A DNA stretch of 64,000 nt, the filler included, from Porpidia crustulata (Eukaryota): assembly GCA_964255105.1 (NCBI GenBank). It is 11 parts of 11 records of this genome, joined end to end, with 100 filler letters (N's around TTAATTAATTAA, not from the genome) between each part and the next. Parts side by side here need not be neighbours in the genome. Positions count along the whole stretch, not along the records: positions 1 to 5,767 come from CAXUWE010001704.1; 10 more parts are not named here. One strand, written 5' to 3'. The notes under the pieces are model-generated. The model was given only the letters and a program-made list of their open reading frames with translations, was not told the origin of the DNA and searched no databases. Both the position numbers and the translations under genes were made by a program. This document shows positions 1,461 to 9,122 of this stretch, piece after piece (position 1 is the stretch's first letter; the number at the start of each line of letters is the position of its first letter).

Positions 1461-3053
1461 TTAGCCAGGTAATGGAGTTAGCCATGGATCTTCAAGGAGT
1501 TCCTTCGCACTCTTTCGGTCTTCCGGCAACCATTGAAGCATCTTTCTCGCAAAGTTAAGGAAGAGCCGTTTATTTTCCCCTCCCAAGGACCGGACCGTAT
1601 CCTCTAGTCTGACCCAGCTTGGAATTAGATCCTTGTGCATGAACGCACCTGAACTCGAGAAGTCAGTGTTTTGGTTTATTCGCGGGTGCAGCCAATTAGA
1701 CTGCCAACTTCGAGGAAGCTCACCTTCGGAATCGAAGAAGGGCCCTCCGTAGTACTCGTGAGTGTTGTGACAAATTTTGCCATCAGCATTTTGAACAGCG
1801 TACTTCCATTTGACATTGCCCCACCGTGATTCTTGCTCAATAAGCTTCATTGGTGGAGGGCCTAGTAATGCAATCATCTCCGCAAGATGTGCTCGACCAC
1901 TATAAGTGCCTTGGCTGGAGCGAATATTTCTGAACAAATCTTCGTTCTCCATTAGGTTCCAAATCTGCGTAACACGCCTCGTCAGCAAAACTCCTGTGTA
2001 GACGAAAGACGTTGAAGCACACCAGAACGCCGAGGTTCCAAATGTCCGCTTTGTACGTCCACCCCGTGCCTAACAGGACTTCTGGAGCATGGTAAAGAGG
2101 AGGCTGGATGGGGTGCCTCAGTGCTTCCGAACCATCTCCTGGTTGTGCTAAACCAAAGTCCCCTATCTTTGGGAGTGTACGGAATGACTTGAGTCGCCCG
2201 AAATCATTGCATGATTGAAAGATTGATCGGCCGTCTTCGATTTTTCGAGGCACTGGGGTTTCGGCTTGCTTTTTGACAAAATCTTTGATCACGGATGGAT
2301 CCTCAAATCCCACCAAAATATTGTCTGGTTTAAGGTCTCCCGTAGAACGCGTCTCAGTCAATATCAACGTCAGGTAGAGTCTTAAACCCACCTGTGTGAA
2401 TGATGTGGCATTCCGAATGAAGATAGTTGAGCCCTTGCAAGAGAAATTTCAAGTATACTTTGAGAAGACTCGGTGGAATTTTATTATCCTCCCAGCGCTG
2501 CTGAAATCGCCAGAGAGGCTCTCTCATTGGCTCATAAACCAGGCATAAGTGCGTGCCATCTGGTCCCGCAGCTTCGAAGTTGTCGACGACGGTCCTTACA
2601 TATCGGAAACCTTCGTGGAATGGATTCCTCATAAGGCGTCGCGCTATGTTCAGCTCATGTTTTGAAGCATCTTCGTCGACGAAGTCGGAGACGGTGATCT
2701 TCAGAGCTACGTAACGGTCTGACTTCCACCACCAGCTATGGAGAAGTCAGCAAGTATCACACATCACGTTGAGCTATTGCGTACACTCGAGTATCTTGAG
2801 CCAGCCATACGGTAGAGGAAGCGCCCCATCCAATCTTGGCCACTATCTTATATTTGTTGTGGAAGATATCCCCTAAATTGACTGGCAAGAAATGCTTGGC
2901 ATTGTAACCTGGATTTCCCTCTTCCTCTATAGGGACTTCAGCCGAGAGGATTGTAGGTGACTGACTTGCGGTCATGATGACGCGTCTTGAAGTAGCAAGC
3001 GGTTGTCGAAGGAGTCGGACAGCGTAAGACGGCGCGAATCTTGGCGCCAACAT
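1461..3053 (-). CDS. SRPK/CMGC-family Ser/Thr protein kinase, 5 exons
   Basis: Spliced ORFs give KIGWGASSTVWLA, YVALK, HLCLVYEPM, IIHTDLKPDNIL, IGDFGLA, YHAPEV, ADIWNLG and RKMLQWLPEDRKSAKELLEDPWL. Four GT-AG introns with CTGAC/CTGAG-type branch points. Confidence 0.92.
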
Positions 3054-3456: not shown

Positions 3457-3577
3457 CTCCCTGACGGGGAATCGAACCCCGGCCATCCGCGTGACAAGCG
3501 GATATCTGTTATTGTTAGCGTATCCATGTAATTTTTTCAACATTTTGTAATTACCATAACCACTAGACTATCAAGGA
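3457..3577 (-). tRNA. tRNA-Asp(GTC) with a 49-nt non-canonical intron (3506-3554) between nt 23 and 24
   Basis: Exons 3577-3555 and 3505-3457 join to TCCTTGATAGTCTAGTGGTTATG|ATATCCGCTTGTCACGCGGATGGCCGGGGTTCGATTCCCCGTCAGGGAG (72 nt). Acceptor stem TCCTTGA/TCAGGGA, anticodon stem TCCGC/GCGGA, GTC anticodon at 3495-3493, T-loop TTCGATT, G73 discriminator, intact A and B boxes. Confidence 0.93.
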
Positions 3578-3606: not shown

Positions 3607-3614
3607 ATTATAAA
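3607..3614 (-). promoter_or_regulatory. TATA-like element ~30 nt upstream of tRNA-Asp
   Basis: TTTATAAT on the minus strand at -30 to -37, the usual TBP/TFIIIB position. Confidence 0.45.
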
Positions 3615-4119
3615 CCCAAAATTTTTGAATCTTAAATCTACTCGTAACTAAGTGATGCTGGCTTTAAGCTTTCAAAGCACTAGAATCACCGATAGCTTAA
3701 GCGACTATATAACTATCTTAATCACTAATATCTATAAACTCTAACACTCTCTCTTATTTACTTTAGATACTGGTAGGCCGTCTCCGGTAGAGAGTCCGTT
3801 GGCCACCGTGCTTCCTAATGCTTCGCTAACCTAGTATCCGTTCCTGACTAGGTGGGTAAGAAAGATCTGCTTTAGGCCTAATACCGACCCCTCAAGGTAG
3901 CAAAATCGAAAGAAGTGTTATAGACCCTCCGAAGATCTTACCATCTCTGTATTTCGGAGTCGATTCCTGTTAGAAAAGCGAAGCCATTCCAGACCGAGCG
4001 AGATCGTCCAACTCTTTGGAATCGGAATACTCAGCTCGAGCTTGAGTTTGAATCTCCTATAACTTGTTTGTATTGTCTAAGTCAGGTTCTTCTCCTTCGA
4101 ATCCAATGTCAAAACAGAA

Positions 4120-4772
4120 ATATCGGCCTTTGTTGTCTACTCTCCTATTCTCCTACTTCTCCACAGTCATGACAATCGACAACTTCTCTCCAACGATCGC
4201 CTTAATCTTCGCCGGCTATATCAGTACCTAGCCCAAAGCGAGTGGCGCCACCTCAATCGCCGCTCGCGCAAATAATTCAGACATATTGCTAGCGGCGACG
4301 GTATCAGGCCCGCTCACTATGTGGGGTTAGCCTATTGAGTTCGCTTTCCAACAAAAGGATCTCTCAAGGCTACACGAAGAATACTTCCGCACCTACTTCA
4401 TCAGCTCGTGCTCCACCGACGTCAAGCCCAGTCATGCTGGCGGTTACAACCGCTACTTCCCTCCTCTCCGTGACGATTCCTACGTCAGCGCCTGGCAACA
4501 ACAACGATAATAACAGCTTTTCCACAGGTACGAAAGCGGGCATAGGAATCGGCGTTGCAGTGATAGCAATTCTTCTACTAGGGTGTGCCTTCTTCCTACT
4601 CTGGAGAAGAAGGCGAAGGTCCCGTCCTGAAGAGGAGCCGGAGCCTGTCAAGATGTTCAGCGACTCGAACGAGAAAGAGGGAGAGATAGAGAAAGAGAGA
4701 ATTTTCTTCCCCGACGAAGCACAAGTGACATCACAACTTGCGCAACCTGAGCATCTGCCCCTCGGAATTTGA
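4120..4772 (+). pseudogene. Degenerate Ser/Thr-rich single-pass membrane protein
   Basis: The frame from 4169 reads ...YIST*PK...MWG*PIEFAFQQKDLS with TAG at 4229 and 4328. It then shifts frame into an S/T stalk, a TM helix (AGIGIGVAVIAILLLGCAFFLLW) and RRRRR. The 5' boundary is approximate. Confidence 0.55.
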
Positions 4773-5767: not shown

Positions 5768-5867
5768 NNNNNNNNNNNNNNNNNNNNNNNNNNNNNNNNN
5801 NNNNNNNNNNNTTAATTAATTAANNNNNNNNNNNNNNNNNNNNNNNNNNNNNNNNNNNNNNNNNNNN
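5768..5867. other. Artificial contig spacer N44-TTAATTAATTAA-N44
   Basis: Six-frame stop linker flanked by Ns. Confidence 0.98.
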
Positions 5868-6214: not shown

Positions 6215-9122
6215 ATGGTCAAACGTAAGCCAGTCAGTCCTGGCCTAACCCGGCCTTCAACCGGCCTTCCATACTCTGTTGCTTCGATTTCTTCACAGGA
6301 ACCAATAAGAGCAGCTCCGTTACTTCCTTCGGGGGCAGAACGATTTCAAGTTCAAGATTCAAGCACCAGACTACCGTCAAGCGTGAGCAGATCTGACATG
6401 GCCAATTCAACGAACGCATGGGCGAATGATGACGAGTTTCATGGTGAGAAAAGGATTGAGCTACCGCCTGTACTGAGGGTTGGAAAGGAGAAAGTACTGG
6501 CCGAAAGGGGTCAGAAAGAGGAGTTATTACCAGCGCCACTTCGGCTGGGACATCGGGCTGACACGCCAAGATCCTCTGAAGAAAGTCTCTTTGGTGTACA
6601 ACCAGGCATTAATAAAGGAGAAGATCGAGAAGTAAACTCGAACGGTCTCAATTCGAAAATACAGGGCCATCACTCAAACAATCCGTTCCTTCGCATGAAA
6701 CATATAGATGGACTAGAATCACGAGGGGGTAAGATTAATGAGGGCAGTAGTGTGGATATATGGGCCAACGGAACGGCAAGCCCATCATCACAGACTCCCG
6801 AATTACAATTCTCCAGTTGGTCGACCTACCTCTTGTAGCGAATCGTTGGATTTTGAAGCTGACACTAGCTCCAGATACAGCTTTAGATCTTGAAACTTCT
6901 GGAACGTCTGGTGGCCTCTCGGAGAAGTCGCCGTTTGCTGAACCCTGGGTCGAACCAACATCATCTCCTAGGGAAGATCTTCAAGTGCACAATGTATCCT
7001 CTGAGTCTACCAGAAGTGAACAAGAGTATCGTGATCTAGTAAGTAATCCGTATCTCGAAAATGGCTTCGAAAGCCCTCATCCTAGATCATTCGACGCTAG
7101 CTATCCTACACAAAGTGGTATATACAATGAACGGCCTTTTGGAGAAGCATTAAAATTACAACGATCAGAAGGGGCAAAAGGTCTCCTAGATTACATGAGT
7201 ACGCCTAAGAAGCTTCCAACAGCGCCTCTTCGTGGCGAGACCGAAGAATCCGAACTATGGAGACAAGGATCGCAAAAAGCTGTTAAGTCTCCCTCACTAA
7301 GGCCTCTACAACCTGACGCACAGCCCGATTCTCTCTTATCTGGACATGCAAACCCAAATAATGGTGAATTTCAGCTATCGGAAGCAGAGAAGCAGCAGAA
7401 TAAGACCACAAAGCAGAGGAGCGAGACCTACCAGATCAGACTCGTGAACTGGTACGATGCTTCGTGCTCTAACAACCCTCGGAGGTCACCAATAATGGTT
7501 CAAAATGCTAATGGTCCCTGCCCACTACTTGCGCTTGTTAATGCTCTCGTGCTCTCAACCCCAGCGAGTGTCGACACTGCCCTTGTAGAGACTCTCCGAG
7601 TTCGCGAGCAAGTCAGCTTGGGTCTACTGCTTGACGCGGTTATCGATGAGCTCATGTCTGGGCGGAGAGGCAATGCAGCCCAAGCACTTCCTGACGTCAG
7701 TGATCTTTATGCATTTCTTGTCACACTTCATACTGGTATGAATGTCAATCCGCAATTTGTCCCGTCATGGTCTAGTGCCTCAAAGTTTATGGATGCCCCA
7801 GCTTCTGACTCTCCAATCACTGCTCGACAATCTCCAAAGCCAGGTGGATTTGAAGATACCCGCGAGATGAGATTATATAGTACGTTTGCTATACCACTGA
7901 TTCACGGATGGCTACCACCTAGGAACCATGCCGCCTTTGCGGCATTACAACGGTCGGCCAAAACATACGAGGATGCTCAAAATCTAATGTTCATGGAGGA
8001 GGAATTAGAGGATAAGCTTCAACGACAAGGGCTTGATCCACAGGAGCAGCTATTGCTGGAGGACGTTGCTAGTGTCAAATACTTCCTCTCATCCTCTGCT
8101 ACGCAGCTTACAGGATATGGTCTGGACACTATCATGGATATGCTTCCTGCAGGATCGATTACTATACTTTTCCGGAATGATCATTTCAGCACCCTTTATA
8201 AAAACCCCCAATCTGGCCAGCTTTTCACCCTTGTTACTGACATGGGATATGCCGGACATGACGAAGTAGTTTGGGAATGCCTTGTTGACATCAGCGGAGA
8301 AGGTTGCGAGTTCTTCGCTGGAGATTTCCGATCCGTGGGTCACAACACAGGAAAGCAGTCCTCTCAATCAAATGGGGTTGCAACGTCCGACGATTCTCCT
8401 TGGACCACTGTTTCGCGGAATAGTCATAATGAAACACAGCAACCGTCAAGATCTAGTGACTCAAGAACGCAGAACGCGGGAGACTCATCTAACCCATTTC
8501 CACAATTATCGTTACTATCTCTTGACGACGCTAGAGAAACATCAAAGTCCTCGAACACCGAACAAGAAGACCATGACCTTGCTTTGGCTTTGCAACTCCA
8601 AGAGGAGGAAGAAGATCGTGAGCGCCGTGAGACGGCAGCTCGCCGCCGTGAAGACGAGCTTTCCCAAGCCTACCTCGAGCAACAAGGGCCATCTGCTCGG
8701 CGTGGCCCGGTTCGCGCATCAGAAGTCCGTCCCACCGTTCCTCCTCGAGGGAAGAAGCAGCCTACCACTGGAGAAGACGCTCCTCCCCCTACCTACGAGC
8801 AGGCAGCGAAAGTTCCTGCCTATTATCCACCCGAGGATAATCCTCCAGCACTTCGCGGCAACAATAACAATTCAATAAGATCCCAAGGGACGCATCAAAG
8901 GCAATCCAGTGCTTATAGTCAGAATACTGCAGTGTTTTCAGGGTCTCCTTCGGCACATCACGTGAATGTCGTAGGGTCGCCGATGCGCGGGAACACCNNN
9001 NNNNNNNGGGGGGGAGGGCGGGCGGGTTTGACGGGGGTCCTGGACCGTCTCAGAGAAGAAATGGACATCAAGGATCAGAACCAGTAGCAGAGGAGGATCG
9101 GAAAGACTGCGTTGTTATGTAG
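6215..9122 (+). CDS. MINDY-family (DUF544) deubiquitinase with C-terminal CaaX
   Basis: Catalytic QNANGPCPLLA and FRNDHFSTL, plus MIU-like EDHDLALALQLQEEE. Intron 6816-~6868. After the N10 gap (8998-9007) another frame ends EEDRKDCVVM* at 9122. Confidence 0.9.

Follow-up and report, generated by a model that had tools for sequence, protein, structure and literature searches.

The introns of fungal and animal tRNA genes are removed by a heterotetrameric tRNA endonuclease, which according to the relevant passage of a 2023 review acts only between positions 37 and 38 (PMC10485636). In the parts of three reviews from 2023 and 2026 that deal with the subject, tRNA splicing is stated to use neither the spliceosome nor GT-AG borders (PMC10275265, PMC13149111, PMC10485636). 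Introns at other positions of the tRNA, including the D arm, have been described in archaea and in a 2013 study (PMC3728597); they are cut by an endonuclease at bulge-helix-bulge motifs, and the genes that carry them are missed by tRNA finders. Spliceosomal introns are also found in genes that do not encode proteins. An mRNA-type intron interrupts the U6 gene of fission yeast and of other fungi (Tani and Ohshima, 1989, 1991, as quoted in PMC5855946), and the same 2018 review, in the section at hand, lists U6, U2, U5, U1 and rRNA as hosts of spliceosomal introns, tRNA not being among them (PMC5855946). Fungal U3 snoRNA genes carry spliceosomal introns as well, and no tRNA case is reported in the portion of that survey that was available (PMC5832005).

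The locus described here, a tRNA-Asp(GTC) gene interrupted in its D stem, shares certain properties with each of these systems. Like the canonical introns at 37/38 that are cut by the TSEN/SEN endonuclease, its insert is short, lies in a nuclear tRNA gene and has to be removed for a working tRNA to be formed, but both its position (23/24) and its signals differ. As with the archaeal introns and those of the 2013 study, as far as the latter could be compared, the insert lies outside 37/38 in the D arm and its gene escapes the finders; where those introns have a bulge-helix-bulge, however, it is a GT, a branch motif and an AG that are conserved here. The U6 intron is similar in being a short GT-AG insert with a branch site in a small, structured non-coding RNA gene, transcribed by Pol III in that case and probably so in ours, and in having a sequence that is unconserved beyond the splice sites. 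Removal by the spliceosome is established for the U6 intron and is proposed for the present one; furthermore, the host is a tRNA and not a spliceosomal RNA, and the argument for reverse splicing that applies to U6, U2 and U5, which is based on how near they lie to the spliceosome's active site, does not apply to a tRNA. The introns of fungal U3 genes are likewise short, of spliceosomal type and located in a fungal gene for a structured non-coding RNA, within its 5' part, and here it is the class of the host RNA that differs.

Bhattacharya et al. are said to have described, in 2000, introns of spliceosomal type in the nuclear rRNA genes of ascomycetes, both lichen-forming and other. Those introns would resemble ours in being of spliceosomal type, in residing in a structural RNA gene that Pol II does not transcribe and in occurring in the same kind of fungi, but their hosts are rRNA genes transcribed by Pol I, whereas the present host is a tRNA gene that shows features of Pol III genes. 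It is already known that structural RNA genes can contain spliceosomal introns, and it is the tRNA host that is new within the literature searched: none of the full texts covered was found to describe a tRNA gene with such an intron, subscription-only papers being outside the scope of the search. The original prediction, which was made from the sequence of this locus, had likewise known of no such description for tRNAs. Two of its premises, that canonical tRNA introns sit at 37/38 and are cut by SEN and that spliceosomal introns have precedents in non-mRNA genes, are both found in the review passages cited above (PMC10485636 for the former, with the present insert at 23/24 instead; PMC5855946 for the latter, with U6, U2, U5, U1 and rRNA).

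In our opinion the observations are best explained, with a probability of roughly 0.7, by a working nuclear tRNA-Asp(GTC) gene whose D stem is split by a short spliceosomal intron of the U2 (GT-AG) type, which several lichen-type ascomycetes would owe to a common ancestor. The features of the locus are listed in Table 1, in which positions refer to the window, i.e., the whole stretch of 64,000 nucleotides of DNA that was analyzed.

Table 1. The split tRNA-Asp(GTC) gene and its surroundings. Positions are those of the window; counterparts of the upstream element are given as locus and position.
Feature	Position	Strand	Remarks
tRNA-Asp(GTC) gene, insert included	3577-3457	(-)	121 nt unspliced
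Exon 1: acceptor 5' strand, D-stem 5' strand, D loop, D-stem 3' strand to G23	3577-3555	(-)	23 nt
A-box-like TAGTCTAGTGG in exon 1	3570-3560	(-)	
Insert between G23 and A24 (D-stem 3' strand)	3554-3506	(-)	49 nt, spliceosomal-type
Insert donor GTAATT	3554-3549	(-)	
Insert branch motif GCTAAC	3519-3514	(-)	branch A at 3515, 9 nt before insert end
Insert acceptor CAG	3508-3506	(-)	
Exon 2: A24 and T25 of D stem, anticodon arm, T arm, acceptor 3' strand	3505-3457	(-)	49 nt
Anticodon GTC in exon 2	3495-3493	(-)	
B box GGTTCGATTCC in T arm of exon 2	3478-3468	(-)	exact match
Discriminator G	3457	(-)	
T7 run	3452-3446	(-)	likely Pol III terminator; begins 5 nt past tRNA 3' end
Second T7 run	3441-3435	(-)	
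TATA-like TTTATAAT	3607-3614	(-)	30-37 nt upstream of tRNA start
Conserved non-coding element directly upstream of tRNA	about 3661-4147	slightly favours (-)	single-copy
Counterparts of the upstream element	L005:351-650; L014:231-655; L019:2716-2760		

The coordinates and sequence of the two exons and of the insert were as originally claimed, and the donor, the branch motif with its adenosine at the given distance and the acceptor are all present. Once the insert had been cut out by its coordinates, ARAGORN reported a 72-nt tRNA-Asp(GTC) with four arms and an anticodon loop without intron, in line with the predicted cloverleaf split at G23/A24 and with the predicted absence of an anticodon-loop intron. 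The variable loop in exon 2 measures 4 nt. Removal of the insert restores the D-stem pairs G10-U25, U11-A24, and C12-G23. G is the last base of exon 1 and also of the insert, so that the borders of the insert are ambiguous by 1 nt, which leaves the mature sequence unaffected. In yeast the identity elements of tRNA-Asp are the anticodon GTC, the discriminator G and the pair G10-U25, and all of them are present in the spliced form. Signals for Pol III were also found, namely an A-box-like element, an exact B box and a T run past the 3' end, and these presumably function as such. A promoter role of TATA-like boxes is known from the tRNA genes of fission yeast and plants, and the TATA-like box upstream of the split tRNA-Asp may be a promoter element as well.

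Metagenome contigs were scanned for tRNA-Asp(GTC)-like genes in which 39-69 extra bases separate the D loop from the anticodon loop. The pattern demands an insert and covers split tRNA-Asp genes only, intronless copies being outside its scope. A total of 34 loci were returned and sorted by eye: 15 of them proved to be the tRNA-Asp of the window, split at exactly the same 23/24 site, in 14 the first motif came from a neighbouring tRNA gene or from unrelated sequence, and the remaining five (four of rumen type and one other) held different kinds of insert. The search for split tRNA halves in relatives, which had been suggested together with the original prediction, did return the same split gene. 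The 15 loci all belong to a single accession series of metagenome assemblies and the sampling is thus narrow, while a scan of a prokaryote genome collection for the split tRNA-Asp family gave 0 matches. Together with the window, the 15 loci represent eight distinct inserts belonging to five deeply diverged types of 47, 49, 50, 53, and 56 nt. The 47-nt type, hereafter the L001 type, accounts for 12 of the 15 loci, nine of which share a single insert, and L021, L029, and L033 carry variants of it. Each of the other three loci, L005 (56 nt), L014 (53 nt), and L019 (50 nt), has an insert of a very different sequence.

Certain other observations from the scan deserve mention. The 56-nt and the 47-nt insert types were found on two contigs of one assembly (L005 and L006), which may mean that the sample contained two fungi or that a single genome holds two old paralogues. 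The four loci of rumen type (L009, L017, L027, and L028) are tRNA-Asp(GTC)-like genes with an insert of about 48 nt in the 5' strand of the anticodon stem; this insert has no GT start or AG end and looks like another kind of non-canonical tRNA intron. The tRNA-Asp-like gene at L015:1439-1557 apparently contains more than one insert, between the D arm and the anticodon loop and past the anticodon loop.

Comparison of the eight distinct inserts revealed that each of them starts with GTA, contains a YTRAY motif whose branch A lies 9-14 nt before the 3' end, and terminates in CAG or TAG (YAG). The window, L005, and L014 have CTAAC as the branch motif, L019 and the L001 type have CTAAT, and L029 has TTAAT. 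The expectation that orthologous inserts keep GT, branch motif and AG was thus borne out in 8/8 cases, with the branch site conserved as YTRAY and not always as CTAAC. In a MAFFT alignment of the eight sequences (alignment A2), 15 intron columns are invariant; eight of them correspond to the initial GTA, to TAA within the branch motif and to the AG at the 3' end, while the other seven are scattered A/T positions. The rest of the insert has diverged, and the differences in length are due to indels. The exons are almost invariant: exon 1 is identical in seven of the eight sequences, with one change in L005, and 159 of the 160 pair cells of the cloverleaf are paired across the eight variants. The anticodon stem of L019 shows a two-sided compensatory change of C-G to U-A, and the acceptor stem of L005 has one C-A mismatch. 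Judging from the aligned sequences, the exons are under tRNA-type constraint. Signals that are kept, a remainder that is free to change and exons that are frozen make up the pattern predicted for a spliced intron in a working gene.

The flanks and the composition of the inserts were also compared. A T run of at least five is found within 25 nt of the 3' end in all seven variants with enough trailer, the contig of L014 ending too soon. L005 and L014 have A/T-rich boxes similar to the TATA-like one of the window, located around -30 to -35; such boxes are less clear in L019 and L001. The inserts are A-rich, with an A fraction of 0.38-0.49 (0.49 in the window insert), and only 1014 of 17833 window 49-mers reach 0.38. 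No T run longer than four occurs in any variant; the insert of L005 holds a T4 run, and the longest T run of the window insert is 2. Avoidance of T runs was considered as evidence for Pol III and was discarded as not significant, given that 14952 of the 17833 window 49-mers have no T run longer than three. In the predicted consensus fold of the precursor, exon 1 forms a 6-bp hairpin of its own (positions 7-12 with 17-22; window 3556-3571, minus strand), which ends one base short of the donor. In the fold predicted for the window sequence itself, the D region pairs instead with the part of the intron around the branch site.

The combination of GT, YTRAY, and AG is rare by chance. With the branch A allowed at 5-20 nt from the end, it turned up 69 times when the insert was shuffled 200000 times, and 44 of 124826 window 49-mers contain it; with an exact CTAAC the figures are 9 of 200000 and 2 of 124826, respectively. 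The mRNA intron candidates of the window, which were identified heuristically by the bridging of ORFs and without the use of homologues, are mostly 49-64 nt long, and the tRNA inserts with their 47-56 nt are of similar length. In fungi the donor consensus is GTRNGT, with +5 usually a G. Four of the five insert types (GTAATT, GTATTA) have T at position +5, and a G is found there only in the L001 type (GTAAGA). The donor thus departs from the extended consensus GTRNGT and is weak past GTA, which counts against a spliceosomal reading. The original prediction had stated that the insert matches the mRNA introns of the window; this is correct for size, branch site and acceptor, but it does not extend to the donor, where the G at +5 is absent.

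Concerning the organisms that carry the split gene, the closest named homologues of the peptidase M3 encoded in the window belong, among the matches listed, to lichen-forming Lecanoromycetes (72-76% identity). A quick maximum-likelihood tree was built from this protein and 25 of the 120 listed matches, consisting of 16 named ones, with each fungal class named in the list, and nine unnamed ones; the other named rows of Lecanoromycetes and Onygenales were left out. In this one-gene tree the window protein nests in the lecanoromycete clade with a support of 98, apart from Eurotiomycetes, Dothideomycetes, and Candelariomycetes, and the evidence of this one gene suggests placing the window in the Lecanoromycetes. 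In L019 the tRNA adjoins a gene for an SPB1 methyltransferase, whose best named matches, among those listed, are from Endocarpon pusillum (81% and 80%), followed by Phaeomoniella (76%), and no lecanoromycete name appears among the 120 matches listed for it. This neighbour gene appears to be closest to Endocarpon (Verrucariales). L019 and L021 have a neighbouring gene in common, with 82-86% nucleotide identity. On single-gene evidence the split gene would be present in at least two classes of ascomycetes. Such an occurrence would mean that the intron is old or, with less likelihood, that it was gained more than once at this site.

If the gene works as we propose, its expression would begin with transcription through the intron, most likely by RNA polymerase III. 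We propose this polymerase on account of the intact A and B boxes, the TATA-like box at around -30 and the T7 run that closely follows the 3' end. Because of the intron, which contains no long T run, the A and B boxes would be 49 nt farther apart. Subsequently, the spliceosome would recognize the G/GUA donor, the CUAAC branch site and the CAG acceptor, the intron would leave as a lariat and G23 would be joined to A24, by which the D stem is restored; ordinary end trimming and then CCA addition would presumably follow in this order. The intron may have originated by reverse splicing. Certain features count against this reading. Exon 1 and the Pol III leader would together form a very short, uncapped 5' exon of about 30 nt, and the C-A acceptor mismatch of L005, along with the T4 run in its intron, would speak against a functional gene as far as the sequence of that locus goes. 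Finally, the conserved element upstream possibly leaves room for a longer precursor, which could be a Pol II transcript.

The split tRNA-Asp is intergenic in the window. A gene for an SRPK-like protein kinase starts about 400 nt downstream of it on the same strand, and neither the kinase nor the other window neighbours lie beside the tRNA in the related loci, so the tRNA unit is not an intron or UTR of the adjacent kinase gene; the possibility that it is an intron of the kinase transcript was rejected for this reason. The non-coding element directly upstream of the tRNA matches L005 at 90% identity across 301 nt and L014 at 77% across 490 nt, and L019 has 45 nt of it. It has thus been kept in three to four lineages, though the tRNA inserts of those loci have strongly diverged. 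The element is marked by large block indels and by a conserved CATTT..TTCAA..TTTT box at its end, 45-75 nt before the tRNA, and a conserved T4-T5 run and the TATA-like box lie between it and the tRNA. Neither a conserved ORF nor 3-base periodicity was detected in the comparison of loci, and no Rfam family matched the element. Its predicted fold has -134.9 kcal/mol (z -1.29) on the tRNA strand and -101.6 kcal/mol (z +1.54) on the other, both z-scores being weak. The element is absent from the loci of the L001 type (12/15). Possibly the element is an RNA gene that has yet to be described, or else a leader connected with the split tRNA-Asp.

Two further observations concern other parts of the window. 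A match to the C/D-box snoRNA snoU83B at 2611-2684 (minus strand) reached 23.5 bits against a gathering score of 35 and lies inside an exon of the kinase gene; it is probably spurious. Paired blocks of 44 N occur at 5768-5867 and then about every 5860 nt, with further N at 8998-9007; these 890 N in total were masked and are located away from the tRNA.

The upstream element is of particular relevance to an alternative in which the insert is a spliceosomal intron as well, but of a long Pol II precursor that starts in or upstream of this element; the intron would be spliced out co-transcriptionally, and RNase P and RNase Z would then free the tRNA. An analogy is offered by the tRNA-like mascRNA, which is released from MALAT1. 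We regard this scenario as unlikely, although it should be kept in mind. The element is conserved directly upstream of the tRNA in L005, L014, and, over its 45 nt, L019, it has no ORF and it folds better on the tRNA strand; in addition, a 5' exon that is long and capped would probably be a better substrate for the spliceosome than an uncapped one of about 30 nt. However, 12 of the 15 loci, all of the L001 type, do without the element, and the weak z-scores lend little to its predicted folding. The conserved T4-T5 run and the TATA-like box in between look like the border of two separate units, and T runs of at least five directly past the tRNA in 7/7 variants also speak against a long precursor. 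According to a different view, the insert is never removed and the tRNA gene is disabled, being either kept as an element bound by TFIIIC/Pol III or as a tRNA-like RNA, or in the course of decay. A and B boxes may indeed be conserved for TFIIIC binding alone, and the acceptor-stem mismatch of L005 would fit a disabled gene. We nevertheless find this view improbable, as both exons are conserved over their full length across five diverged insert types, with the non-promoter stems included, the anticodon stem of L019 has undergone a compensatory change, and the splice signals have been selectively kept while the remaining insert diverges. A decaying pseudogene would not show such a pattern of full-length exon and signal conservation.

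It could also be argued that the insert is an ectopic intron cut by the tRNA endonuclease at a bulge-helix-bulge, as in archaea and the red alga Cyanidioschyzon, the exons being joined by tRNA ligase. Such a motif requires that the four bases preceding one bulge pair with the four preceding the other, and that this helix has further helices on either side. In the window the exon sequence GTTA, which precedes the 5' bulge, pairs perfectly with TAAC of the intron, which precedes the 3' bulge, and the junctions come to lie in 3-nt bulges 4 bp apart. This central helix, however, is complete (4/4) in the window only and reaches 2-3 of 4 pairs in the other seven variants; the inner helix within the intron is found in 0/8, and the outer helix between the exons amounts to three weak pairs. 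A 4-bp helix of this kind arose by chance in 7444 of 200000 shuffles (3.7%) of the A-rich insert. RNAalifold on alignment A2 keeps the acceptor, anticodon, and T arms, leaves 57/57 intron columns unpaired and predicts no helix that spans the junctions. Moreover, such an intron would leave the conserved GTA, the YTRAY at a fixed distance and the YAG unexplained, and the fungal-type endonuclease is stated, in the passage of the 2023 review mentioned above, to act only at 37/38, whereas the insert is at 23/24 (PMC10485636). We consider this explanation highly improbable. With GTA, YTRAY, and YAG in 8/8 inserts and a bulge-helix-bulge that is not conserved, the evidence favors the spliceosomal type that had been proposed originally. 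A self-splicing group I or group II intron was rejected, the catalytic core of such introns being hundreds of nt in size vs. 47-56 nt for the inserts, and no Rfam intron family matched the window, even at permissive E-values.

The detection of the gene by common tools was also considered. ARAGORN found 0 genes in the unspliced window and nothing was obtained at Rfam gathering scores; at permissive Rfam E-values the T arm was the sole part of the split tRNA-Asp to be matched. When run in intron mode, ARAGORN converted the window gene into a false tRNA-Val(AAC) with a bogus intron. Across the window and the family loci the false identities were Val(AAC), Ile(AAT), Cys(ACA), and Asn(ATT), each with a bogus intron in the anticodon loop. 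It had been anticipated that standard finders may miss such genes, and they did so here. Since ARAGORN and the Rfam tRNA model miss or misname the gene, tRNA-Asp is perhaps absent or wrong in the annotations of these fungi, and automatic annotations may contain phantom tRNA genes. No other tRNA or tRNA fragment was found by ARAGORN or Rfam in the 64-kb window. The sole ARAGORN call in the flanks of the family loci, a tRNA-Arg(CCT) in L021 and L029, was rejected as spurious because its acceptor stem is broken.

Going back to the preferred reading, that of a working tRNA-Asp gene with a spliceosomal intron, a conserved GT-branch-AG intron in the D arm of a tRNA would be an exception to the statement of the reviews on tRNA splicing. 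The non-mRNA hosts of spliceosomal introns (U6, U2, U5, U1, U3, and rRNA) would extend to tRNA, and tRNA introns would acquire a fourth class beside the endonuclease type, group I and group II. Two questions could be addressed in this natural system: whether Pol III transcripts that are short and uncapped, U6 apart, are accessible to the spliceosome, and how spliceosomal introns enter structured RNAs, e.g., by reverse splicing. We would give even odds to the broader claim that nuclear tRNA genes can carry true spliceosomal introns and that in a clade of lichen-type ascomycetes, comprising at least Lecanoromycetes and Verrucariales-like Eurotiomycetes, tRNA-Asp has, from the common ancestor onward, matured only through the action of the spliceosome on a Pol III transcript. 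Should no other gene for tRNA-Asp exist, the decoding of every Asp codon would hinge on the removal of the intron. Taken together with the known rRNA introns, the spliceosome of these fungi would then service transcripts of Pol I, Pol II, and Pol III.
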